This document shows, piece by piece, positions 2,008 to 13,527 of a stretch of 21,378 bases of DNA. The notes under the pieces are model-generated. The model ran no database searches, was not told the origin of the DNA, and was given only the letters and a program-made list of their open reading frames with translations. The translations under genes were made by a program, and so were the position numbers. The stretch is from a virus. Location of the stretch: UHGV virus genome UHGV-0079970. One strand, 5' to 3'. Numbering within the stretch: the first letter of the stretch is position 1; each line of letters starts with the position of its first letter.

Positions 2008-3057
2008 TCAAACGATTAAATCCTGAACTTCCCTGACTGTCTGCTCAAAACGTCCGGTCTCCAGTTCAACGCCAATCGCACGACGCCCGAGCGCCAGTGC
2101 AGCTTTTACCGTTGAACCTGAGCCCATAAAAAAATCTGCAACCAGGTCTCCCGGACGACTGCTTGCGCTGATTATCTGCTGCAGCATTTCTGCCGGTTTT
2201 TCGCACGGATGTTTCCCGGGATAGAACTGCACCGGTTTATGTGTCCACACATCCGTGTACGGCACCTGCGCCGTCACACCAAAATACCGCCGCAGATGCT
2301 TATATTCACTATGCAGCTCCACATACTGCCGGTTCAGTGACGTATACGTATCCACCAGCTGGTGGTGGGGCTTTTCCAGTTCACCGCGCTGATGTTTCTC
2401 TTCTGCCACCCGGGCAAACAGCGACTGTAATTTCAGATAATCGCTTTCGTTCGGTAGCTGCCACTGACTGGCACTGAACCAGTGCGACACCATGTTTTTC
2501 TTTCCTGTGGCATCTGCAATCTGTTTTGCCGTTATCCCCAGGGCAGCTCGCGCATCACGAAAGTAAGAAATCAGCGGGGCCATCACATGCTGTTTCAGTG
2601 CACTGCCCTTCGCCGCATACCCGGCATCTTTCGGACGATACGGCCCCTGATAATGTTCCGCGAACAGAATGCGCTCTGTGGCGGGGAAATACGCCCGCAG
2701 GCTTTCCTTGTTGCATCCGTTCCAGCGTCCGGACGGCTTCGCCCAGATAATATGGTTCAGCACACTGAAGCGTTCACGCATCATGATTTCGATATCAGAT
2801 GCCAGGCGATGACCACAGAACAGGTAAAGACTTCCGGCAGGTTTCAGCACCCGCCAGAACTGCGCCAGACACTGGTCCAGCCACTTCAGGTAATCATCGT
2901 CGCCCTTCCACTGGTTATCCCAGCCCTCGGGTTTCACTTTAAAGTATGGCGGGTCTGTGACTATAAGATCGACAGAGTTTTCCGGTAAGGTCTGGATAAA
3001 TTCCAGGCAATCAGCGTTGATTAACTCACAACTGGATATTTTTACAGTATTAGCCAT
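2008..3057 (-). CDS. N6-adenine (or N4-cytosine) DNA methyltransferase, beta-class
   Basis: 349-aa ORF; motif IV LIVTDPPYF near the N-terminus and AdoMet motif FFMGSGST near the C-terminus (order typical of beta-class amino-MTases). Confidence 0.8.
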   Translation of the reverse strand: MANTVKISSCELINADCLEFIQTLPENSVDLIVTDPPYFKVKPEGWDNQWKGDDDYLKWLDQCLAQFWRVLKPAGSLYLFCGHRLASDIEIMMRERFSVLNHIIWAKPSGRWNGCNKESLRAYFPATERILFAEHYQGPYRPKDAGYAAKGSALKQHVMAPLISYFRDARAALGITAKQIADATGKKNMVSHWFSASQWQLPNESDYLKLQSLFARVAEEKHQRGELEKPHHQLVDTYTSLNRQYVELHSEYKHLRRYFGVTAQVPYTDVWTHKPVQFYPGKHPCEKPAEMLQQIISASSRPGDLVADFFMGSGSTVKAALALGRRAIGVELETGRFEQTVREVQDLIV

Positions 3058-3193
3058 AGATCAATAAGCACTTCTCTGATAGGCTCATACCGCTTTTGCG
3101 CAAAGCAGATGGGCCTGAGGTTTGCTTGTGACCCCAACGCATGAGCAGATGGCTGGCAGGTGCCGCTAACACCCACCAGCCGCCCATTACCAC

Positions 3194-3658: not shown

Positions 3659-4816
3659 ATGACCACACTCAAAGAACTCAAAGAAGAGCTTGCTCAGATT
3701 CAAGATGAAAACGCGAAAAATAGAAAAAAAGCTGAAATTGCAGCCTTGGTCACTTCTGCCGACAACGAGATTAGGCTTGCTCAGAGAAATATTGGATACA
3801 ACGTACGTGAATGGACCGTTGAATTAATTGTACAAAAGTATGGCAATAATCTTGAAACTGACAAAAACGAACTTTTTATTCCTGATTATCAACGCGATTA
3901 CAAATGGGATATCAAAACAGCCTCTCGATTCATCGAAAGTATATTATTAGATTTTCCAATCCCGTACCTCTACATCTCCGACGTATTTAATGAAGATCCT
4001 GAGTTGGATGGTCGTGTAGAAATTATTGACGGTTCACAAAGGATTCGCTCAATTTACTACTTTTGGAACAATCAGTTTGAATTGAAAGACTTAAAAGAAC
4101 TCAAAAGTTTAGAGGGCTTCAAATTTTCAGATCTTTTGGCTAGCCGCCAGAGGCGATTTTTAAGGGCATCACTAAGATTTATTGAATTGAAAGGTGATGT
4201 TGAGGAGCAACATAGAAGAGATTTATTCGAAAGAATAAATTCAGGTGTTAAGAGACTGGAAGCGATGGAGGTTAGACATGGTTCAGATGCGGCCACTTCA
4301 ATTTTCTATAGGGATGTTGTGACTCCTTGCTCAACAAATCCACTTTTCGCTAGTCTAGCTCCATTATCAGACCGGAAACGTTCGAATGGCGATCATCGTG
4401 AGTTAGTTTTGAGATTTTTTGCATACTTAAATGATTTAGAAAATTATAAGGGTTATGTCGCTCCTTTTATTGACAATTATCTTAATGTTCAGGCCGAAAG
4501 GGTCACACAACAAGATGTAGACAAATTTAAACATGATTTTGAAAGCATGCTTGCTTTTGTAGATGCTCATTTCCCTATGGGGTTTAAAAAGACACCAACA
4601 AGCAAAACCACCCCCCGTGCTAGATACGAAGCCATAGCAGTGGGAACTGCTCTTGCCTTAAAAGCCAATCCACATCTACAGGCTCCGGTTATTCCTGTAG
4701 GAGACTGGCTGTTTGGGGAGGAATTTGAAACCATAGTTACTGCTGATAGTGCCAACAACACCAGCCAACTCAAAAACAGAATATTTTATGTCAAAGATAA
4801 ATTATTAGGAATGTAA
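3659..4816 (+). CDS. DUF262 / ParB-like (GmrSD N-terminal type) domain protein, 385 aa; no recognisable DUF1524/HNH nuclease domain
   Basis: Motifs DYQRDYKW and IIDGSQRIRS (DGQQR-type DUF262 signature), later LFERINSGVKRLEAME; N-terminal ~60-aa coiled-coil-like extension. Strong RBS. AT-rich (~37-41% GC in hand-counted 100-nt samples). Confidence 0.75.
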   Translation: MTTLKELKEELAQIQDENAKNRKKAEIAALVTSADNEIRLAQRNIGYNVREWTVELIVQKYGNNLETDKNELFIPDYQRDYKWDIKTASRFIESILLDFPIPYLYISDVFNEDPELDGRVEIIDGSQRIRSIYYFWNNQFELKDLKELKSLEGFKFSDLLASRQRRFLRASLRFIELKGDVEEQHRRDLFERINSGVKRLEAMEVRHGSDAATSIFYRDVVTPCSTNPLFASLAPLSDRKRSNGDHRELVLRFFAYLNDLENYKGYVAPFIDNYLNVQAERVTQQDVDKFKHDFESMLAFVDAHFPMGFKKTPTSKTTPRARYEAIAVGTALALKANPHLQAPVIPVGDWLFGEEFETIVTADSANNTSQLKNRIFYVKDKLLGM

Positions 4817-4818
4817 CT

Positions 4819-5508
4819 ATGAGTTTGATTGATTTAAGAGATGAATACGAAGAAAGAGCAAGAGATATTATGGAATTGCTTTCTCTTGCGTCATCTTTAG
4901 AGGCTCAGACTCAGCAGTTAGATCAGCAAACGCATAAAGATGAAATAGAATCAAATACCCTTAGGGTTAACATTTTAAAATCATCCGTGCACATGATGCT
5001 GTACAATCAGGTTGAAAACACTGCCAGAGGATGCATTGAGTCAATTTATGACCATTTGCAAGATAATGAAGTAAATTACGCATCACTCAGGGAGAAATTC
5101 CAAGTAAATATCTTGCACCGTATCATTTCAGATAATGAATCGGGAAAATCTCTTTATCAAAAAATTGGTTCCGATATATCTAAAAGGATCATTTCAGCCT
5201 CATTAAACATACGTAAAGAATTCAATGGTAATGTTTGCAAGTCTGTATTGCACAAAATAACACAAGCTTACGGAATAACTGTTGCAAACTCACCAGAGTG
5301 TAGAAATGGTGTTGACTTAGATTTACTTAAAGATATCAGAAATGAGCTGGCACATGGAAGTACCAGCTTTTCTAAAAAAGGTCAAATAGACCCTTTAGAA
5401 GAAGTCAAATCGAGGTCAGAAAGAATTGATCTATATTTGCGTTTATTAATCAACTCAACAGAAAATTATATTACCTCTAACGGGTATTTATCCCCTCAAC
5501 ATGTCTGA
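4819..5508 (+). CDS. HEPN-motif protein (predicted RNase-type effector), 229 aa
   Basis: ATG 2 nt after the upstream stop (translational coupling) with AGGAA SD; canonical R-[N]-x3-H motif RNELAH (5338-5355) in the C-terminal third; rest mostly helical by composition. Confidence 0.6.
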   Translation: MSLIDLRDEYEERARDIMELLSLASSLEAQTQQLDQQTHKDEIESNTLRVNILKSSVHMMLYNQVENTARGCIESIYDHLQDNEVNYASLREKFQVNILHRIISDNESGKSLYQKIGSDISKRIISASLNIRKEFNGNVCKSVLHKITQAYGITVANSPECRNGVDLDLLKDIRNELAHGSTSFSKKGQIDPLEEVKSRSERIDLYLRLLINSTENYITSNGYLSPQHV

Positions 5509-6517
5509 TAAATGTTTCCCCTATTATCTGACCAATTATAGGGGGAACAGCATTTCCAATCATTGTCCCCAATTTTTGGAATGAAAAAGGCGTCTCCTTG
5601 TCAAGGAATTTATAATCCATTGGAAAGGATTGCAAAATCGCAGCTTCACGCAAAGTTATGGCGCGATTTTGCTCAGGATGGCCAAATCGTCCATTTCCAT
5701 ATCCATAACACTGGGTAGTTATCGTAGGGCTAGTATCGTCCCAAACCATCCGTCCATAAACGCTTTTATAGGTAGCACCTGAATTCTTTTTATGACAGTC
5801 TGCTCTAATTTCTTCAGGCCAGTCATCCCACGTACCACCAGGTAAAGAATGCATGATTCGTTTAAGATTGATATCCATCAATTTAGGCGAACGATGCAAG
5901 GGATCGCTTTCCAGCTTCTCACCTGCCCCTACTTTTGGCAACCTACCAATAGCATCCTTAACAGTAACTTTACGGCTAACTTTTTTTTGATCAAGGCTGA
6001 TCGGCCCCAATTGGGAACCAATTAGAATTAATCTACGTCTATTTTGAGGTAAGCCATACTCAGAACATCTTACAACGTCGTACCACAAATGATATCCAAG
6101 AGTCTTTAATGCACTAACAAACCCTTCAAAAACCTTATGGTTTCTAAGTTGAGGAACATTCTCCATCGTCACAAGCTCTGGCATGACATCACTTACAAGC
6201 CTTTGAAACTCATATAACAAACGCCACTTTGTATCGTCTTTACGGCTATTTGGATTACGATACTTGGAAAACGGTTGGCAAGGAGCACATCCAGCAAGCA
6301 ATCTAATATTTCCTTCCTTGAACATAGCAGACACATCGCAGGATTGCAGTTCTGTAACTGACTGATTAATGAACTGCGTTAAAGGATTATTGCTCTCAAT
6401 AGCAAAACGGCAGGATTCATCAATATCAATACCATGAGAAACCTCAATCCCGGCTTTTTTTAGCCCAAAAGTTAAGCCCCCCGCACCACAAAAAATGTCT
6501 ACTGCCTGAATGTTCAC
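5477..6517 (-). CDS. C5-cytosine DNA methyltransferase (Dcm/type II M family), 346 aa
   Basis: Motif I DIFCGAGGLTFG, catalytic PCQ in GCAPCQPFS, ENV, QNRRRL, GNAV. Start is GTG at 6517 with GGAG 6 nt upstream. 3' end overlaps the HEPN gene tail-to-tail by 32 bp. Confidence 0.9.
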   Translation of the reverse strand: MNIQAVDIFCGAGGLTFGLKKAGIEVSHGIDIDESCRFAIESNNPLTQFINQSVTELQSCDVSAMFKEGNIRLLAGCAPCQPFSKYRNPNSRKDDTKWRLLYEFQRLVSDVMPELVTMENVPQLRNHKVFEGFVSALKTLGYHLWYDVVRCSEYGLPQNRRRLILIGSQLGPISLDQKKVSRKVTVKDAIGRLPKVGAGEKLESDPLHRSPKLMDINLKRIMHSLPGGTWDDWPEEIRADCHKKNSGATYKSVYGRMVWDDTSPTITTQCYGYGNGRFGHPEQNRAITLREAAILQSFPMDYKFLDKETPFSFQKLGTMIGNAVPPIIGQIIGETFIRHVEGINTR

Positions 6518-6949: not shown

Positions 6950-7206
6950 CAGCGCAGTACCTCCTGCACCAGTTTTTCAAACTTACCAACTCTGGTTTCC
7001 AGCTCTGCCACACAATCCACCAGCTCATCCACTGCTTTTTGTGCACGGTGTTTTGCCTGCATCAGTTCCCTGAGCGCTGGCACCATATCCCGACGAATGG
7101 CATCTTTTGTTACACCTGTTTTTTCCAGTTGTTCCGCCTGCCGCAACATTTCCTGTGCCTGTTTACGTAATTGCTCAGGGGTAAAAGTCATTGTCTGGTT
7201 GTTCAA
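6949..7206 (-). CDS. Hypothetical small coiled-coil protein (nin-region position), 85 aa
   Basis: TTG start at 7206 with GGAG 8 nt upstream, overlapping the DnaB-like stop; translationally coupled to Q. Alternative ATG at 7191 has no SD. Confidence 0.45.
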   Translation of the reverse strand: MNNQTMTFTPEQLRKQAQEMLRQAEQLEKTGVTKDAIRRDMVPALRELMQAKHRAQKAVDELVDCVAELETRVGKFEKLVQEVLR

Positions 7207-8603
7207 AAGAAACGCTCCATCTTACTGCTGTCAGTTCGTTTGTTGCTGTATCTGCGCGGCTGGGGCTGTTGCATTGGTGTGGAAAGAACCCGGGCACTCT
7301 CCTGGTCCACAGGCAGAAAATGTCCGTTATGAAAACGCCGGTAAATGGTCCCGAGCGTGCCATTACGCTGTTTCGTGATGTTGATTTCTGCTATGCCTCT
7401 GGCCTGAGTTTCCGGGTTGTATACCTCCTCCCTGTAAAGCATCAGAATGATGTCGGCATCCGCCTCGATTTCCCCGGAGTTTTTCAGGTCCGAGTTCATT
7501 GGGCGTTTATTGGGTCTGGATTCCACGCCACGGGAGAGCTGGCTCAGAGCAATCAGCGGAAAACCGCCGGATTTTGCCAGGCTTTTAAGTCCCTTTGAGA
7601 TTTCCCCCACAGCAAGGTCGTGACGCCCCGTGCTGCGGGTTTTAATCAGGCCGAGGTAATCGACCACAACCAGCGCCGTTTCCGGATGCTTCATCCGGTG
7701 GTGCTTCGTGGTTGCACATATCTCATCAATGGTCAGGTTTGCCTGGTCCACCATCCAGATATTACGCCCCGTCATTCGTCCCACGCCCTGCGAGAAACGC
7801 GCCCAGTCTTCATCTTCAAAACGGGCAACAGACTTAAGACGGGATACCGGCATTCCACCGGCAGCAGACACCATACGTTCACCAATCTGGATGTTCGCCA
7901 TCTCCATGGTGAACAGAAGCACGCCATGCCCCTGCTCAGTCACCTTGTCGATGATGTCCAGCGCAAGTTCGGTTTTCCCCATCGAAGGACGGGCGGCAAT
8001 GAATACCAGGTCTCCGGGCTCCATACCGCCCGTTTTTGCGTCCAGTTCATCAATACCGGTCATCAGCGCCCTGGATTTCTCCAGTCCCTGATTGCGGCAT
8101 TCAACACGGTCGACCACTTCCGGAAGGACATCATCAATGTGAACCGGCTGAATGACGCCCTTTCCGGTCGACAGTGAGGCCATCATGTTCTGCGCATCCT
8201 TCAGGGCATCCTCGGCTGCTTCACAGGTATACGCATCACGTAAATTCTGTAATGCTTCAGTCAGTGTTTTTTCTGCATCACGCAGTGCGGCATTGCGCCG
8301 CAACGCTGCGACATAGTGCTCCAGTGAAGACTTCACCCAGGTTTTGCGTCCGGTGTCGGTAATCACCGGGGCAAGTTCCGGCATCTCATTGCACAGCAGT
8401 ACGGGGTCAATGACGCCGGATATGCGAGCCTGTCTGCAAATCCCCGCGTAAATATCCCGGTACTGACGCACAAAAAATACATCCGCCGGAAGTGTGGCCA
8501 GAATATCCATCACTTCCGGATCGGCCCCACGCAGAAAAAACGCACCGATGACAGCGCCTTCCAGGTCATCGTTACGCCATGCCGGGGTGTTCTGGCTGGT
8601 CAT
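7203..8603 (-). CDS. Replicative DNA helicase, DnaB family (phage-encoded)
   Basis: 466-aa ORF with Walker A ARPSMGKT, Walker B-like LVVVDYLGL and a RecA-like C-terminal domain; follows the DnaC-like gene with overlapping stop/start. Confidence 0.9.
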   Translation of the reverse strand: MTSQNTPAWRNDDLEGAVIGAFFLRGADPEVMDILATLPADVFFVRQYRDIYAGICRQARISGVIDPVLLCNEMPELAPVITDTGRKTWVKSSLEHYVAALRRNAALRDAEKTLTEALQNLRDAYTCEAAEDALKDAQNMMASLSTGKGVIQPVHIDDVLPEVVDRVECRNQGLEKSRALMTGIDELDAKTGGMEPGDLVFIAARPSMGKTELALDIIDKVTEQGHGVLLFTMEMANIQIGERMVSAAGGMPVSRLKSVARFEDEDWARFSQGVGRMTGRNIWMVDQANLTIDEICATTKHHRMKHPETALVVVDYLGLIKTRSTGRHDLAVGEISKGLKSLAKSGGFPLIALSQLSRGVESRPNKRPMNSDLKNSGEIEADADIILMLYREEVYNPETQARGIAEINITKQRNGTLGTIYRRFHNGHFLPVDQESARVLSTPMQQPQPRRYSNKRTDSSKMERFF

Positions 8604-9499
8604 GCGGCAACACCTCCGATACGAGAACGGTAGCTGGGCCAGTTAAACGACAACCAGTTGCGCCCGCCATCGGTGATCCTGTCGGCAATCCGGGGACTGA
8701 TGAACGCCCACAATTCTTCCGGTGAAAGGTTGCTGATCAGGATAGTTGGCAAAATACCCTCATACCGGGCATTGATAATTTCCTGCAAAATGGCCATTTC
8801 AGCCGCACTGCCAAACTGAACGCCGACTTCGTCGACAATCAGCAAATCCAGTGACGCATAATGCTCAATGACGTCATCCGCTGTTTTTTCACTGTCATTC
8901 CGCCAGCAGTTTTTCACAGCCCGGGTAAGGCGCATCACGTCGGTGATCTCCACACTGGCCAGATAGTTACGGATGATGTGTTTTGCCATTGATACCGCCA
9001 GATGATTTTTCCCGGTACCGCAACTGCCGGTCATAACAAGACTGGTACCGTTCTCCAGCATATCTGGCCAGTTCTCCGCATAGCGGCGACAGGCCGCAAG
9101 ATTTCTGGCTGCGTCAGGATTAACCTCCAGATAATTATCAAACTCGCAGTCCCGAAAACGCAGAGCAATTCCGGCGTTATCAGTCAGTTCTTCCGCCTTG
9201 AGGGACGACAGTTCCATGGTCAAATCACTGGCCTCAGCGATCAAGCAGTCAGGGCAGCATGAAATTTTTTCTCTGTCCTCGCCATTACGATCGATCCACA
9301 CCAGTATATGCGTACGATATTTACCGTGTTTTTCGCAATATCCGCGACCTTCACGCATCAGGCAGGAACGATAAGGCCATGGCTTTTCGCCCTTCTGAGC
9401 AAATGCAATCTCTGCCCGTAACTCATCCATTTCTGCCCGTAACTCATCCATTCGCGCCTGTAGTCTTGTTTGTTTCTCACGTTGGTCAATCGTCATCAT
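8600..9499 (-). CDS. DnaC/IstB-like AAA+ helicase loader
   Basis: Walker A GSCGTGKNHLA, Walker B LLIVDEVG. Probable start is ATG at 9499 (GAGG 8 nt upstream) rather than the GTG at 9508 used in the ORF track. Confidence 0.85.
   Translation of the reverse strand: MMTIDQREKQTRLQARMDELRAEMDELRAEIAFAQKGEKPWPYRSCLMREGRGYCEKHGKYRTHILVWIDRNGEDREKISCCPDCLIAEASDLTMELSSLKAEELTDNAGIALRFRDCEFDNYLEVNPDAARNLAACRRYAENWPDMLENGTSLVMTGSCGTGKNHLAVSMAKHIIRNYLASVEITDVMRLTRAVKNCWRNDSEKTADDVIEHYASLDLLIVDEVGVQFGSAAEMAILQEIINARYEGILPTILISNLSPEELWAFISPRIADRITDGGRNWLSFNWPSYRSRIGGVAA
9411..9452. repeat. Perfect 21-bp tandem duplication inside the DnaC-like gene
   Basis: tctgcccgtaactcatccatt occurs twice in tandem (9411-9431, 9432-9452), encoding MDELRAE-MDELRAE in frame on the minus strand. 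Confidence 0.9.
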
Positions 9500-9509
9500 C
9501 GCTGTCACC

Positions 9510-10496
9510 TCAGAATGTCAATTTGTTACTGGATTTACCGAATTTGTCAGACATGGCTCCCAGGCCAGCCAGGACATCGACCTGTCGCTGTCGCCCACCT
9601 CCGTGAGCGGCTGGCTGTTGCCAGTAATCTTCGAAGTGACGATCGGGTCCAAAGAACGTCGCAGCCTGCTTCACGAACTGTGTGCCGGTATTTCCTGTAG
9701 CACGTACCCAGGCGGCATACCGCTTCACGCCATCAAGCATGGTCTCCGGTTTTATTCCCTCCCTGATACGGGCTTTCCAGGCTTTGAAGGCTGCTGACTT
9801 GGAATTGCCACCAGCACGTTTGGGATATTCCTGCCAGGCCTGTTCAAATTCCGGTGAATATTCCTGTCGGGCAGAACGCGCAGACGCGTCAGCGGATGCA
9901 TCAATAGTGTTTTTAGTCTCCGTTGTAATCTCTGTAGTAATCTCTGTATTTGTATCAACATTCGGCGTATCCCCTGTTCCGTTATGACGTCGGGGGGTGT
10001 TCCGTTTTAACGTAATAGCTGTATCGCTGATTGCATTATTGCTGTTACTTTCTGGCGAAACAGAAGAAGGTGTGGTGATGGCCGCAATTGCCTGTGGGTT
10101 GATCCCGACAAACAAAATATTGCTGCATTTCACCCCATCGAGCATTTCCACCGTGCGTAAATCCAGAGTAATAAACCCTGCATCGCGCAGACGCTTCAGC
10201 GCATCTGCGGTTTCCCTTTTCCCGAAACCAAACTGCTCAGCAAACGCCTGGTAGCTTCTTTGCAGTTTGTCGCCCTGAAAACGCTTGCGATATCCCAGCA
10301 ACGCTCCGGTGTGCTCATCCCTGACCTCTGTCGGGCGGTACCAGTAAACGATCTCTGAAAGCAGAGCGATAGCCGTCGCATCCGGACGCCCACTGGGTAG
10401 TCGAATATATTTCCACCAGTTCGCAGGTGTAACATTGCCGGAAATATTAATTTGACCAATAGCCATAACTTCCGGTGTGGGGGCGTAACGGCTCAT
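9510..10496 (-). CDS. Replication initiator, O-like (phage replisome organiser)
   Basis: 328-aa ORF with AAGGAGG RBS, directly upstream of and coupled to the DnaC/DnaB-like genes; N-terminal domain, low-complexity central linker (TNTEITTEITTETKNT) carrying DNA repeats, C-terminal domain. Family call is by position and architecture. Confidence 0.55.
   Translation of the reverse strand: MSRYAPTPEVMAIGQINISGNVTPANWWKYIRLPSGRPDATAIALLSEIVYWYRPTEVRDEHTGALLGYRKRFQGDKLQRSYQAFAEQFGFGKRETADALKRLRDAGFITLDLRTVEMLDGVKCSNILFVGINPQAIAAITTPSSVSPESNSNNAISDTAITLKRNTPRRHNGTGDTPNVDTNTEITTEITTETKNTIDASADASARSARQEYSPEFEQAWQEYPKRAGGNSKSAAFKAWKARIREGIKPETMLDGVKRYAAWVRATGNTGTQFVKQAATFFGPDRHFEDYWQQPAAHGGGRQRQVDVLAGLGAMSDKFGKSSNKLTF
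9911..9956. repeat. Iteron-like short tandem repeats inside the O-like gene (candidate origin)
   Basis: gtaatctctgta repeated in tandem (9925-9936, 9937-9948) with degenerate flanking copies. Lambda ori lies at the equivalent place within O (established knowledge). Confidence 0.35.
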
Positions 10497-10792
10497 ACAA
10501 CCTCCTTCCGCGGCATGAGAATTGTGTAGCCACGCGCAGGTTGTAGTCTGGCTTTTGCATCAATAGTAAGCGTTGCAATTTTTCGGATATGAAGATAACC
10601 AGCTCTTTCCAGTGCCAGGGTTTCCCTGAATATCGCTTGCTTAGAACAACAGCAGAAATCAGCAAGCACCTGATGATCAATAACTCTCTCGCCTTCACCG
10701 TCTGAAGAACCCGACATCAAAACACGCAACATAATTAGGCGCTGAATCGGGTTATCGAAAGCACATCCGCACACAAACTGAAAACAGTTCAC
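10493..10792 (-). CDS. Hypothetical protein, 99 aa
   Basis: GTG start with GGGAGG 6 nt upstream; stop overlaps the O-like start; part of a chain of coupled genes. Confidence 0.45.
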   Translation of the reverse strand: MNCFQFVCGCAFDNPIQRLIMLRVLMSGSSDGEGERVIDHQVLADFCCCSKQAIFRETLALERAGYLHIRKIATLTIDAKARLQPARGYTILMPRKEVV

Positions 10793-11013
10793 GCCACACC
10801 TCCCAGACGCTTAAACATTTTTCCAGACAGAAATACCGCCAGAGGGTAACTGATGGTGTAGCTACGCCCCTGTAGTTCGCACACGACTTTCTGGCTTTCA
10901 GCGTTGACTAGGCAAACCCGCAGAACGTGACCGTTGCTGGTGGCGAACCACTGCCCCACACGGGGGCAACGGTTGTATCGGTGATACAGGGAATTAACGA
11001 TGTGGCGGATCAT
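10789..11013 (-). CDS. Hypothetical protein, 74 aa
   Basis: ATG with GGAGG 7 nt upstream; stop/start overlaps with both neighbours. Confidence 0.45.
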   Translation of the reverse strand: MIRHIVNSLYHRYNRCPRVGQWFATSNGHVLRVCLVNAESQKVVCELQGRSYTISYPLAVFLSGKMFKRLGGVA

Positions 11014-11204
11014 GGACGCACCTCCGCCGTAGTTACGTATTTAACCGGGCTACCTTTCATTGAGATGGTTTCACACATCTCTGCCGCTTTCAGTTCCGCT
11101 GTTTTTCTGGATTTATAGCGACGGTGCCAGACAGATACATCCGTGCGAACTGATACATCGTTTCTGTATTCCGTAGTGGAGATGATGATTTCGTAACTAA
11201 TCAT
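11010..11204 (-). CDS. Hypothetical protein, 64 aa
   Basis: ATG with AAGGAGG 7 nt upstream; ATGA overlaps with both neighbours. Confidence 0.45.
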   Translation of the reverse strand: MISYEIIISTTEYRNDVSVRTDVSVWHRRYKSRKTAELKAAEMCETISMKGSPVKYVTTAEVRP

Positions 11205-12052
11205 GGGCGAACCTCCTTGTCAGAACCATTCAGCCTGGAATCAACAAGTGCAGCGCCAAAAACAGCATCACCAACACGGTCGTACAGTTTGCTAGCCAGC
11301 GGAGATTCAACGGCCTTAAGCATTGGATAAAGCTGGCTTGTCCAGATTTGATGGATTTCACGCAAATGCAGGTATACGCCTCTGGCGTTTCGTGCGACAG
11401 CTGACATATCAGACGCATCGGCACCTGATAAACTCTTCTCCATCAGGTTAAAGGCGTTGATGTATGCCTCTTTGAACTGGGCAGCACGTTTACCAGTGAA
11501 GCCCATGGCAAGAAACGCAAAACCGTCGCGGGTGATTTGGTAACAAGGGAGTTTGCGGCCTGATGCGTCGGTGTATTCACTTAACACAAAATTGTGTTCA
11601 GTAAATTCAGCGGAACATTCGAGGTTTCTAATTCTATCTAAAACCCGCTCATGCCGTTTAGTAAAGTAATTAGCTACTGCAAGAGATGTGGTGACAACGC
11701 GACCATTGATAATCGTGATTTCAGGGTGAGATTGGGTTGGGAGAGTAGTCATGGTGACAGCCCCTATGTTGAATTCAATGAACTCACCACCAAGGCTTTC
11801 CACGACCATATAGGTGGTGAGACGTACAGGGGTGGAAATACCGGTCAACATAGAACCCGGCCCAACCGAAGTTGGCCCTGCACGCCCCACCATAATTTGG
11901 GTGTAACGATGCTCATGACACGAAAAAACCGCATGAGCGCGGTTGTGCTCTATATTGAATTTCGGGTTTCCACGCCCGGCACCCGCTTTATAAGGTGCCT
12001 GAGCAGTGTAACGTCCCGGAATTGCAGAATCAATATGCTGGTGGCGGATCAT
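11201..12052 (-). CDS. Rha-family phage regulatory protein with an N-terminal extension, 283 aa
   Basis: C-terminal half has Rha-like motifs (SLAVANYFTKRHERVLDRIRNL ... ITRDGFAFLAMGFTGKRAAQFKEAYINAFNLME); N-terminal ~100 aa (IDSAIPGRYT..APYKAGAG..IMVGRAG) is paralogous to the next gene. GGGAGG RBS. Confidence 0.6.
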   Translation of the reverse strand: MIRHQHIDSAIPGRYTAQAPYKAGAGRGNPKFNIEHNRAHAVFSCHEHRYTQIMVGRAGPTSVGPGSMLTGISTPVRLTTYMVVESLGGEFIEFNIGAVTMTTLPTQSHPEITIINGRVVTTSLAVANYFTKRHERVLDRIRNLECSAEFTEHNFVLSEYTDASGRKLPCYQITRDGFAFLAMGFTGKRAAQFKEAYINAFNLMEKSLSGADASDMSAVARNARGVYLHLREIHQIWTSQLYPMLKAVESPLASKLYDRVGDAVFGAALVDSRLNGSDKEVRP

Positions 12053-12711
12053 AGGTGCACCTCCCGTTGATTACGACGGAACGCGGAGTGACCCTGGACG
12101 GTTTCAGCCTCATGGAATGCTTCAATACAGCTCTCGTAGTACCGCATTGTGCGCAGACTTAACCCAAGCTGAAGCATCATCAGACCATCAAGGGTGATGT
12201 AATAACCACGCAGGGAGTCACCGTAGATGTGATAAGTACCCGGTATGAAATTGCGGGTAAAAAACTCGCGTGAGCAGTTCAGATACTCGATTTTGTCAAC
12301 GATGTTCTGGTGCATGCGCTTGAAATGGCAGGCAACATGCAGGGAGAAAATAACGGCCTTGCCGTTGACGACTTCGATTTTTAGGAATGGGGAAGTTAGG
12401 ACAGTAGCCATGATGGCAGCCTCCGTTGACAGTGAAAAACTTCCACCACCGGAAACGCCAATTTCACTGGTGGTGAACTGGACGGGGTTGGCGTAACCGG
12501 CGTCAACGGAGACCGGCGCACCTTTCGGTGCCCCCGCCCAGCCCACCATAATCTGGATGTGAGCAAATGCGGACGATAAAAAAGACGCTGGCGCGTCATA
12601 CATCGCCGTTGACAATTTCAGGACGCCAATCCCGGCACCCGCTTTATAAGGTGCGGAGACAGTGTAACGTCCCGAAATTGCAGAATCAATATTTGGTCTT
12701 GAAATGATCAT
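12049..12711 (-). CDS. Paralog of the preceding gene, Rha-like (more diverged), 220 aa
   Basis: Aligns along its length with the 11201-12052 product (MIISRPNIDSAISGRYTVSAPYKAGAG ... IMVGWAG ... FSLHVACHFKRMHQNIVDKIEYL ... ITLDGLMMLQLG). No obvious SD at its ATG. Confidence 0.5.
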   Translation of the reverse strand: MIISRPNIDSAISGRYTVSAPYKAGAGIGVLKLSTAMYDAPASFLSSAFAHIQIMVGWAGAPKGAPVSVDAGYANPVQFTTSEIGVSGGGSFSLSTEAAIMATVLTSPFLKIEVVNGKAVIFSLHVACHFKRMHQNIVDKIEYLNCSREFFTRNFIPGTYHIYGDSLRGYYITLDGLMMLQLGLSLRTMRYYESCIEAFHEAETVQGHSAFRRNQREVHL

Positions 12712-12819
12712 ATAGCTGCTGATATCTTTAGAACTGTTCTTGGATGTTTCGGAGCCGTTTTATGCGAAACAGCTCCCCGTTATTGATGTTGAGTGAGCCG
12801 GGTTACTCCCGGCTTTTTT

Positions 12820-13527
12820 TCACCGCTGCCAACCAATAACCTGAAATAACCCCATTTTCGGGTGATACCAGCGAGTCCCTCGCGGTTCTGCTTCCTCCAT
12901 AACCCGATAAAAAGCAGCCATAAACGGTTCCACAGCAACAATTGCGCGACGTGACAACAATCCGTCCGGCGTCATGAACTCATGTGTGTCTGTAGGAATT
13001 TGATAGGCGTTCACCAGATTGCGGCATTTATCATCTGACAAACCGGTTTTTGCTTTCAGTTGGCGATATCCGGCATAGCCCTCACGAATAGTGCCCTTTT
13101 TAATTTGCTCGACTGTTTCAGCAACGTGGCTGACTTTTTCTTCCACCTGAGTGATCCGTTTCTGTTGGCGAACGGCTTCAAGAGCCATCGCGGCAACCAT
13201 TTCGATTTCGCTCATTGGCTTACGGATCTGTTCTTCCAGTTCGCGCCAGCGATCTACCAGGCGAGCTGTGAATTCAGGACAGAGCTGTGCGACGACAATG
13301 ATGCTGTCGCGCTTACCTCGTTCACCTTCGAATACATACGCGCTAGAAAATCGGCGAGGCCCAAGTGATTGTTTATTCTCAATTTCCACAGTCTGTGGAA
13401 ATTGGATGATTCCCTTTTTAGCCAGTGTTTCAATAGTTCTCTTAACACTATCTGGTCGGCTTCCCACCAGCTCTGCGATCTCAACGCTGGTCATGGATGC
13501 TTTGCCGTTAAAAATTGCGGTGTTCAT
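12820..13527 (-). CDS. Phage regulatory / antirepressor-like protein with N-terminal Rha/AntA-like DNA-binding region, 235 aa
   Basis: N-terminus MTSVEIAELVGSRPDSVKRTIETL resembles the start of Rha/antirepressor domains; AGGAGA RBS 8 nt upstream; first long gene of the rightward-equivalent early operon. Confidence 0.5.
   Translation of the reverse strand: MNTAIFNGKASMTSVEIAELVGSRPDSVKRTIETLAKKGIIQFPQTVEIENKQSLGPRRFSSAYVFEGERGKRDSIIVVAQLCPEFTARLVDRWRELEEQIRKPMSEIEMVAAMALEAVRQQKRITQVEEKVSHVAETVEQIKKGTIREGYAGYRQLKAKTGLSDDKCRNLVNAYQIPTDTHEFMTPDGLLSRRAIVAVEPFMAAFYRVMEEAEPRGTRWYHPKMGLFQVIGWQR

Follow-up and report, generated by a model that had tools for sequence, protein, structure and literature searches.

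A candidate replication origin within the linker of a prophage initiator gene

The UHGV virus genome UHGV-0079970 carries a short tandem repeat within the coding sequence of a replication initiator gene (9510-10496, minus strand, 328 amino acids), which raises the question of whether these nucleotides merely encode a repetitive protein linker or also mark the site where replication of the phage begins. The whole stretch of DNA that was analysed (21,378 nucleotides, hereafter the window) had previously been given a sequence-only reading, in which an iteron-like tandem repeat at 9911-9956, inside an O-like initiator gene, was put forward as a candidate origin at the position equivalent to that in phage lambda. 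Our analysis sustains the proposal of an origin, on the grounds of purifying selection at the DNA level, gene context and the lambda-equivalent position, and we regard it as likely that the stretch 9913-10019 acts as one. It also seems probable that this minus-strand stretch resembles ori-lambda, residing in the linker of its own initiator and comprising a set of repeats that would be bound and a set of 12-mers that would be melted.

Conservation of the 12-mer block as DNA

On the plus strand, GTAATCTCTGTA occurs exactly, twice in tandem (9925-9936 and 9937-9948), next to a third, degenerate unit at 9913-9924 (TTAGTCTCCGTT, 8 of 12 positions matching), so the tandem repeat that had been noticed inside the gene is real. 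Tandem Repeats Finder (TRF) delimits it to 9917-9948, with a period of 12, 2.7 copies, 90% matches and a score of 50. The conserved 12-mer block (9913-9953, minus strand) reads ACAAA TACAGAGATTAC TACAGAGATTAC AACGGAGACTAA on the coding strand and is proposed here as a DNA-unwinding or helicase-entry element. The repeat encodes TNTEITTEITTE (residues 182-193), between the two conserved domains of the initiator. Matches to TACAGAGAWTAC with at most one mismatch number two in the 21.4-kb window, both at this repeat; shuffled sequences lead one to expect 0.12, and two matches were reached in 1 of 100 shuffles. In this one sequence alone the repeat is only modestly significant, and it is the comparative data that establish it as a selected feature. 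Promoter and terminator scans of the region gave nothing above chance.

The first clue was a BLASTN match, at 74% DNA identity, between window positions 9908-10014 and Acinetobacter phage YMC-13-01-C62, whose gene encodes an N-terminal domain 47% identical to that of the window; over the matched positions, conservation is higher for the DNA than for the protein. Scanning one genome per species with the N-terminal domain yielded 59 loci (35-70% identity) from many phyla, including Yersinia, Xenorhabdus, Providencia, Arsenophonus, Acinetobacter, the Bacillus cereus group, Brevibacillus, Lachnospiraceae, Syntrophomonas, Caldanaerobacter, Atribacterota, Thermodesulfobacteriota and Rickettsiales. 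An equivalent scan of viral contigs was uninformative for comparison, since all its matches were E. coli copies with at least 98% identity. In about 38 of the 59 loci, AC(A/G)WATACARAGANTACTACARAGANTAC stands right behind the N-terminal domain.

Selection was analysed in a set of 25 homologous loci, non-redundant and drawn from several bacterial phyla, in which the block follows the pattern ACA-wAT-ACA-rAG-AnT-ACT-ACA-rAG-AnT-ACT. Its silent third positions are near-invariant (25/25, 25/25, 24/25, 25/25, 22/25, 23/25, 24/25 and 24/25), while the non-synonymous positions 10, 14, 22 and 26 vary, exchanging Glu for Lys and Ile, Asn and Thr for one another. Codon choice is equally rigid: glutamate is encoded by GAG and GAA in a ratio of 36:0 within the block, compared with 218:420 elsewhere in these genes (Fisher p = 1e-16), isoleucine by ATT (23:0) and asparagine by AAT (35:0). 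Matches to the 12-mer occur 108 times in 30 kb of linker zones versus 65 times in 539 kb elsewhere, and the block retains about 95% nucleotide identity across phyla, where the flanking domain has only 40-50% protein identity. Because silent sites are fixed while the positions that change amino acids vary, this pattern, as read from the aligned sequences, shows purifying selection on the DNA of the block and not on the protein.

The same holds at short range. A disordered protein linker would be expected to vary more than any other part of its gene, not less. In six E. coli copies (93-100% identity), however, the linker shows only 0-4 variable columns per 60 nt, versus 7-16 in the two domains up to position 9615; the last 60 nt of the gene are divergent (39 variable columns). 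Across 9909-9956 there is no variable column at all, the sole change being a copy-number difference of one unit. The number of copies is 2.7 or 3.7 among E. coli prophages and ranges from 2 to 4 across the loci.

The block also stands out physically. In all 25 loci, a nearest-neighbour profile makes it the 30-nt duplex of lowest stability within 400 nt on either side (z about +1.5), and the repeat zone upstream of it has above-average stability. In the window, the G+C minimum of the 9000-11000 profile (0.317) falls at 9900-9959. Both features that the earlier reading had asked for are present: an AT-rich, easily melted stretch and, at 9954-10019, further repeat units.

Upstream dyad repeats and the initiators that share the block

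These further units lie just upstream of the 12-mers in the gene, where a repeat search detected a direct repeat (ACGTTAAAACGGAACA / ACGTCATAACGGAACA) with a spacing of 23 nt and the dyad-symmetric core CGTTnnAACG. Family-wide, dyad-symmetric 14-mers (6+2+6) recur with a 22-nt period at offsets of -16, -38, -60/-61 and -82 from the 12-mer block; the mean number of complementary pairs, of six possible, is 4.16, 3.04, 2.5 and 2.5 at -16, -38, -60 and -82, respectively, against a background of 1.53 (standard deviation 0.34). The window holds three candidate iteron units on the minus strand. Unit 1 (9998-10019), which is one copy of the direct repeat, has the core TACGTTAAAACGGA at 10014-10001, with a dyad of 5/6 in register -60/-61; unit 2 (9976-9997) has the core GACGTCATAACGGA at 9991-9978 (3/6, register -38) and is 88% identical to unit 1 across 16 nt; and the degenerate unit 3 (9954-9975) has the core TACGCCGAATGTTG at 9969-9956 (1/6, register -16). 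The sequence of the 14-mer differs by lineage (TACGTTnnAACGTA, TACAAAnnTTTGTA, TACTTTnnAAGTA, TACATTnnAATGTA and TGTAATnnATTACA), as do the half-sites (TACGTT, TACAAA, TACTTT, TACATT and TGTAAT), and the spacers between the 14-mers are runs of G or C. Residue 2 of the predicted recognition helix tracks the half-site loosely, being Arg with TACG or TACA, Leu with TACTTT, Tyr with TAGCAA and Ile with CCAGTT, a weak and anecdotal correspondence. Overall, the three repeats of 22-23-nt period at 9954-10019, to which the earlier reading had not referred, are better iteron candidates than the 12-mers.

The mapped origin of lambda suggests what the 12-mers may be instead. In lambdoid phages the origin is located centrally within O and is made up of iterons and an AT-rich tract; O protects the iterons, and its binding is unchanged when the AT-rich region is replaced (PMC7466680). 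Strand separation and the loading of DnaB on single strands take place within that AT-rich region (PMC3349717). The annotated lambda iterons (39034-39118) are followed by CACAAAAGACACTATTACAAAAGAAAAAAGAAAAGATTATTCG. In one of the homologous loci (L161), the right flank, GATCATTCGTCGCAGAATTCTGGCGAATCC..., is homologous to lambda's GATTATTCGTCAGAGAATTCTGGCGAATCC..., and the 12-mer block falls exactly between the last iteron and this flank; by this homology, the block occupies the slot of lambda's AT-rich region. The window repeat likewise sits in the initiator linker at the lambda-O-equivalent position, as had been proposed, with DnaC-like and DnaB-like genes following (PMC7466680 and the lambda record).

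A further line of evidence is that one and the same block is found behind initiators of different types. The 'O' gene of the Stx2a phage EH2201 shares with the window its C-terminal half and the 12-mer block (LTENTTEITSENTTE); its N-terminal domain is unrelated and its upstream repeats are different, of the GGGAAACC type. More broadly, the exact 24-mer TACAGAGAWTACWACAGAGAWTAC is present in at least 120 IMG/VR contigs, 80 of which were examined in detail. In all 80 it lies in the same frame inside an initiator open reading frame (ORF) of 270-370 amino acids, at residues 141-261. At least four N-terminal domain types precede it in these 80 loci, namely the window type (15 loci), 'LNEAIVLQQ.xYW' (49), 'RPIAYY' (5) and 'LLNQIVFY' (2), and at least five C-terminal domain types follow it, among them the C-terminal type of lambda O. 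The 'LNEAIVLQQ' type, which includes phage mEp460 and many Staphylococcus aureus and Bacillus phages, carries its own GGTCAAAATGACC repeats with a period of 22-23 nt. A block common to initiators whose DNA-binding domains differ cannot serve as the site of their specificity. The suggestion that the 12-mers are initiator-binding iterons is therefore not supported: the block stands behind at least four N-terminal domain types, each with upstream repeats of its own, is the AT-rich, least stable segment and takes the AT-rich slot of lambda. We had likewise entertained the 12-mers as the target of this family's recognition helix, an idea that was demoted once the block appeared behind other N-terminal domains.

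Beyond the 12-mers in the coding direction lies an A-rich tail, AAAAACACTATTGATGCA (9895-9912, minus strand), which begins a segment common to the initiator genes of Stx phages and phiP27; megablast homology to these genes stops at window positions 9906-9947. Within the common segment, about 20 nt past the 12-mer block, there is a GC-rich palindrome centred on ACGCGT (CGCAGACGCGT / ACGCGTCAGCG, 9879-9894). An inverted repeat is likewise present in lambda, on the right-hand side of the AT-rich region. The phiP27 protein L17 shares its C-terminal half with the window initiator and has another N-terminal domain, other repeats and no 12-mers. Its linker repeats (locus L153, 1590-2516, minus strand) are TCAGAnTCTGA-type palindromes with a period of about 15 nt, together with a 21-nt direct repeat, AAACATGATCCGCAAG, present twice; in L17 the shared C-terminal domain may be combined with an origin of another design.

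The initiator itself comprises an N-terminal domain, the repeat-bearing linker and a C-terminal domain, the last of which is common to phiP27 L17 and the Stx-phage 'O' proteins. It matches phrog_270 ('replication initiation protein') over the full profile (E 3e-75, residues 2-327), and its RefSeq labels are 'hypothetical protein', 'replication protein' or 'LvrA C-terminal domain-related protein'. Searches gave no Pfam (E <= 0.01), NCBIfam or PDB sequence match; by Pfam profile search the protein falls outside the lambda O family (PF04492, Phage_rep_O) and matches neither the RepA_N nor the Rep_3 plasmid initiator profile. PHROG matches of the 'O-like' kind are weak (phrog_391, 7e-7; phrog_678, 1e-4). 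The term 'O-like' thus holds for position and architecture and fails for family membership, as far as profile comparison can tell.

Residues 1-140 (10077-10496, minus strand) form a predicted extended winged-helix domain, which is presumed to bind the origin. Its AlphaFold2 model (pLDDT 89.6, pTM 0.82), built on an alignment of homologous-protein search output consisting mostly of fragments, has helices at 82-89 and 93-106 and a beta wing at 109-132 (strands 109-117/123-132). The top Foldseek neighbours are all winged-helix proteins (TFIIE-alpha/TFE, MarR-like proteins and the DnaD N-domain 2v79), and the model confidently predicts a winged helix, that is, a helix-turn-helix with a beta-hairpin wing. 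The candidate origin repeats correspond to residues 160-194 of 328, past the folded domain, which ends near residue 140.

Domains of this type were found in 222 of 5426 complete genomes, 221 of the matches covering at least 80% of the query, and the family also occurs on plasmids and phage-plasmids. An argument that the module is self-sufficient, drawn from a small plasmid with this initiator, was dropped because that plasmid, pBN31-16k, has another Rep gene. In the loci from Rickettsiales and Megaera (L053-L066) and on the Protochlamydia plasmid pPNK (L148), the N-terminal domain is fused to long, different C-terminal parts (470-550 amino acids), and some homologues of this kind in intracellular bacteria are labelled 'DnaA-like' on plasmids.

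A proposed mechanism and its rivals

From the arrangement of these elements we infer the following course of events at the origin. The winged-helix domain of the initiator would bind the repeats with TACGTT..AACGGA dyad cores at 9954-10019, probably as dimers, and the bound complex would melt the adjoining AT-rich array of TACAGAGATTAC units at 9913-9953. The C-terminal domain, together with the DnaC-like loader, would then bring the DnaB-like helicase of the phage onto the melted segment. Judging from the lambdoid layout, an early rightward-type promoter upstream may also send transcription through the site. On balance we lean towards regarding the 12-mers as an unwinding or entry element and not as double-stranded binding sites for the initiator.

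Several observations weigh against this proposal. The 12-mers are only about 67% A+T. The iteron array in the window is weak, as only unit 1 is a good dyad (5/6, against 3/6 and 1/6), and the -16 register, which holds the strongest dyad family-wide, scores just 1/6 here. The block is absent from the Rickettsiales loci and the Protochlamydia plasmid, so it is not obligatory for the domain family. All Foldseek matches of the N-terminal domain are weak (E 2e-3 to 0.1), and a literature search found no experiment on any member of this initiator family. Finally, the strict conservation of the 12-mer sequence exceeds what AT-richness or melting needs, and a sequence-specific reader that stands outside this model is therefore implied.

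Such a reader could be the initiator itself, with the 12-mers being true iterons after all: monomers would bind the head-to-tail TACAGAGAWTAC units as double-stranded DNA, and the upstream dyads would be auxiliary or autoregulatory sites for dimers, much as Rep monomers occupy iterons and Rep dimers inverted repeats in the analogous iteron plasmids. Direct tandem repeats with position-specific conservation are what a sequence-specific reader would leave behind, their copy number (2-4) is polymorphic among E. coli prophages, and a hydrophobic-x-Tyr/Phe-Trp/Tyr helix motif in all four N-terminal domain types might provide a common contact. We nevertheless consider this unlikely, given that the same block stands behind N-terminal domains that differ in recognition helix and in upstream repeats, that 12 bp is short for a winged-helix footprint and that the block is the local stability minimum, in the AT-rich slot of lambda, where replacement of the region leaves O bound to its iterons as before (PMC7466680). 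Fixed silent sites would be predicted equally well if the conserved nucleotides acted in the mRNA, as a protein-binding or ribosome-pausing signal that tunes translation or as an R-loop or primer RNA at the origin, and in the 80 viral loci the block always lies on the sense strand and in the same frame. The constant frame is, however, also explained by common descent of the segment; an Rfam search of the 12-mer region gave no match, and its folding, computed as single-stranded DNA only, was no better than that of shuffles (z = -0.57). That the block keeps a fixed register with the dyad DNA repeats and is equivalent to an element of a mapped DNA origin favours DNA over RNA, and we hold an action in the mRNA to be improbable.

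The most sceptical account denies the block any role in replication, taking it either for a slippage-prone, low-complexity linker (TEITTEITTE) or for a recombination junction shared between initiator modules. Close relatives do differ by one 12-nt unit, and the homology to Stx phages and phiP27 does end at or within the block. Neither possibility sits well with amino acids that change (Glu/Lys; Ile/Asn/Thr) over silent sites and GAG codons that do not, with a block far better conserved across phyla than the domain beside it or with a linker in which the E. coli copies vary less than anywhere else in the gene, and a junction alone would not keep every position under selection; we consider this account very improbable. 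A DnaA-trio-like reading was also set aside, as the trinucleotide pattern is unfit and these systems have their own initiator.

The conservation of the 12-mers invites a broader, more tentative conjecture. It is possible, although we would not yet favour it, that the TACAGAGAWTAC tandems are an ancient, sequence-specific 'origin core' of many initiator-internal origins in phages and plasmids, read by something that these have in common, and that the AT-rich regions of lambda and P22 are its degenerate descendants. Candidates for this reader are a conserved surface of the winged-helix initiators, which would act on a single melted strand, and conserved machinery of the host, for example the helicase or primase. 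One strand of the 12-mer unit carries CTG and the other CTA/TTA, and these match known start triplets of bacterial primases.

Prophage setting and relation to mapped origins

The window is part of a lambdoid prophage and is 100% identical to E. coli ST131-type chromosomes (for example NZ_CP018991). Directly downstream of the initiator gene, on the same minus strand, are the genes for a DnaC-like AAA+ helicase loader (8600-9508) and a DnaB-family replicative helicase (7203-8603). The loader matches PF01695 (IstB_IS21, 4e-14) and phrog_50 (DnaC-like helicase loader, 1e-87), its match to NF005931 (DnaC, 4e-36) being under the cut-off of that model; the helicase matches PF03796 (DnaB_C, 1e-73) and TIGR00665 (6e-92). 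The three consecutive genes form one leftward operon, which we count as support for the origin reading.

Other features of the neighbourhood are recorded here for completeness. A 99-residue ORF (10493-10792, minus strand), which could be an accessory gene for replication or a remnant, overlaps the start of the initiator gene by 4 nt; its match to phrog_4617 ('replication initiation protein', 2e-29) is confined to the first 93 positions of that profile. The N-terminal part of the loader gene contains a 21-nt tandem duplication (ATCTCTGCCCGTAACTCATCC / ATTTCTGCCCGTAACTCATCC, 9408-9449; TRF 9411-9452), for which TRF gives 2.0 copies, 100% matches and a score of 84 and a separate repeat search a second copy that is 95% identical, and which adds a 7-residue repeat to the protein. 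Between the cro-like gene and the replication genes there are three successive Rha/Ash-type regulator genes (11201-13527, minus strand), an unusual pile-up of paralogous anti-repressor-like regulators. At 3659-5508 (plus strand) a DUF262 protein and a MAE_28990-family HEPN-like nuclease are encoded, flanked by a cytosine methyltransferase gene (5477-6517, minus strand) and a DUF6645 pseudogene (over 2008-3057, minus strand), just past which, at about 2600-3060, is a truncated DNA-methyltransferase pseudogene. Situated between the Q antiterminator and lysis genes, the DUF262, HEPN-like and methyltransferase genes look like a cargo island of prophage defence functions.

An origin inside its initiator gene is of the known lambda kind. 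What is new here is an uncharacterised initiator family with iterons of its own and, on the sequence evidence, an array of 12-mers that is deeply conserved and takes the AT-rich position. When the literature was searched for the motifs, as DNA and as peptides, only unrelated primer matches came back, the main review of phage replication modules not being covered. Should the proposal prove correct, the origin would be mapped by homology for a prophage common in E. coli ST131, and the result would apply to the whole initiator family in phages of Acinetobacter, Bacillus and other hosts. A 12-nt unit kept at its silent sites across phyla and initiator types would make the lambda-type 'AT-rich region' more than a matter of composition, and the way in which such initiators open DNA and position the helicase could be tested with one short, portable sequence. 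The 24-mer is, in addition, a practical marker of initiator genes in viral contigs.

Comparison with known systems places the window at differing distances from each. In RK2 oriV and oriC-type origins, whose DNA-unwinding elements include 13-mers, initiator-binding repeats likewise stand beside an AT-rich element of short tandem repeats. There, Rep or DnaA recognises a single strand of the repeats, and DnaA boxes are usual in these origins. Unlike that of the window, they are intergenic and served by Rep_3- or TrfA-type initiators, and the 12-mer sequence is unrelated to theirs. Ori-lambda is nearer in design: it occupies the middle of the initiator gene, between a DNA-binding N-terminal and a helicase-recruiting C-terminal domain, with dyad repeats of about 20-24 bp period and an AT-rich stretch on the promoter-distal side (PMC7466680, PMC3349717), and a variable repeat number adds residues to the protein in both, as with the four versus six iterons of lambda and Stx phages. 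The window differs in an N-terminal domain that is not Pfam Phage_rep_O, in the sequence of its repeats, in having three units, two of them imperfect, instead of four to six, in a sequence-conserved tandem 12-mer where lambda has a plain A/T tract and in its partners, which are a DnaC-like loader and a DnaB encoded by the phage, where lambda relies on P and on the DnaB of its host.

Phage P22, whose origin lies in gene 18, shares with the window a phage-encoded DnaB-type helicase after the initiator and three repeats in the initiator gene. In its annotated rep_origin these are followed by a related tandem repeat (ACAAAAGACAATAT-ACAAAAGACAATAA-ATACAAATAC), in which the A-rich ACAAAAGACAATAT, present twice, resembles ACARAGA..TAC. 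The P22 tandem repeat nonetheless has a 14-nt period and another sequence, the N-terminal domain of gp18 is of the lambda O type and no DnaC-like gene separates initiator from helicase. The initiators of the Stx2_EH2201 and 'LNEAIVLQQ' types (mEp460, S. aureus phages 96 and phiIPLA88, and others) have the same gene architecture as that of the window and, in many cases, the same-frame 12-mer block directly after family-specific repeats of 22-23-nt period. They differ from it in their N-terminal domains and iterons (GGGAAACC-type and GGTCAAAATGACC, respectively), and their C-terminal domains vary, being lambda-O-C-like, DnaD-like or of other kinds.

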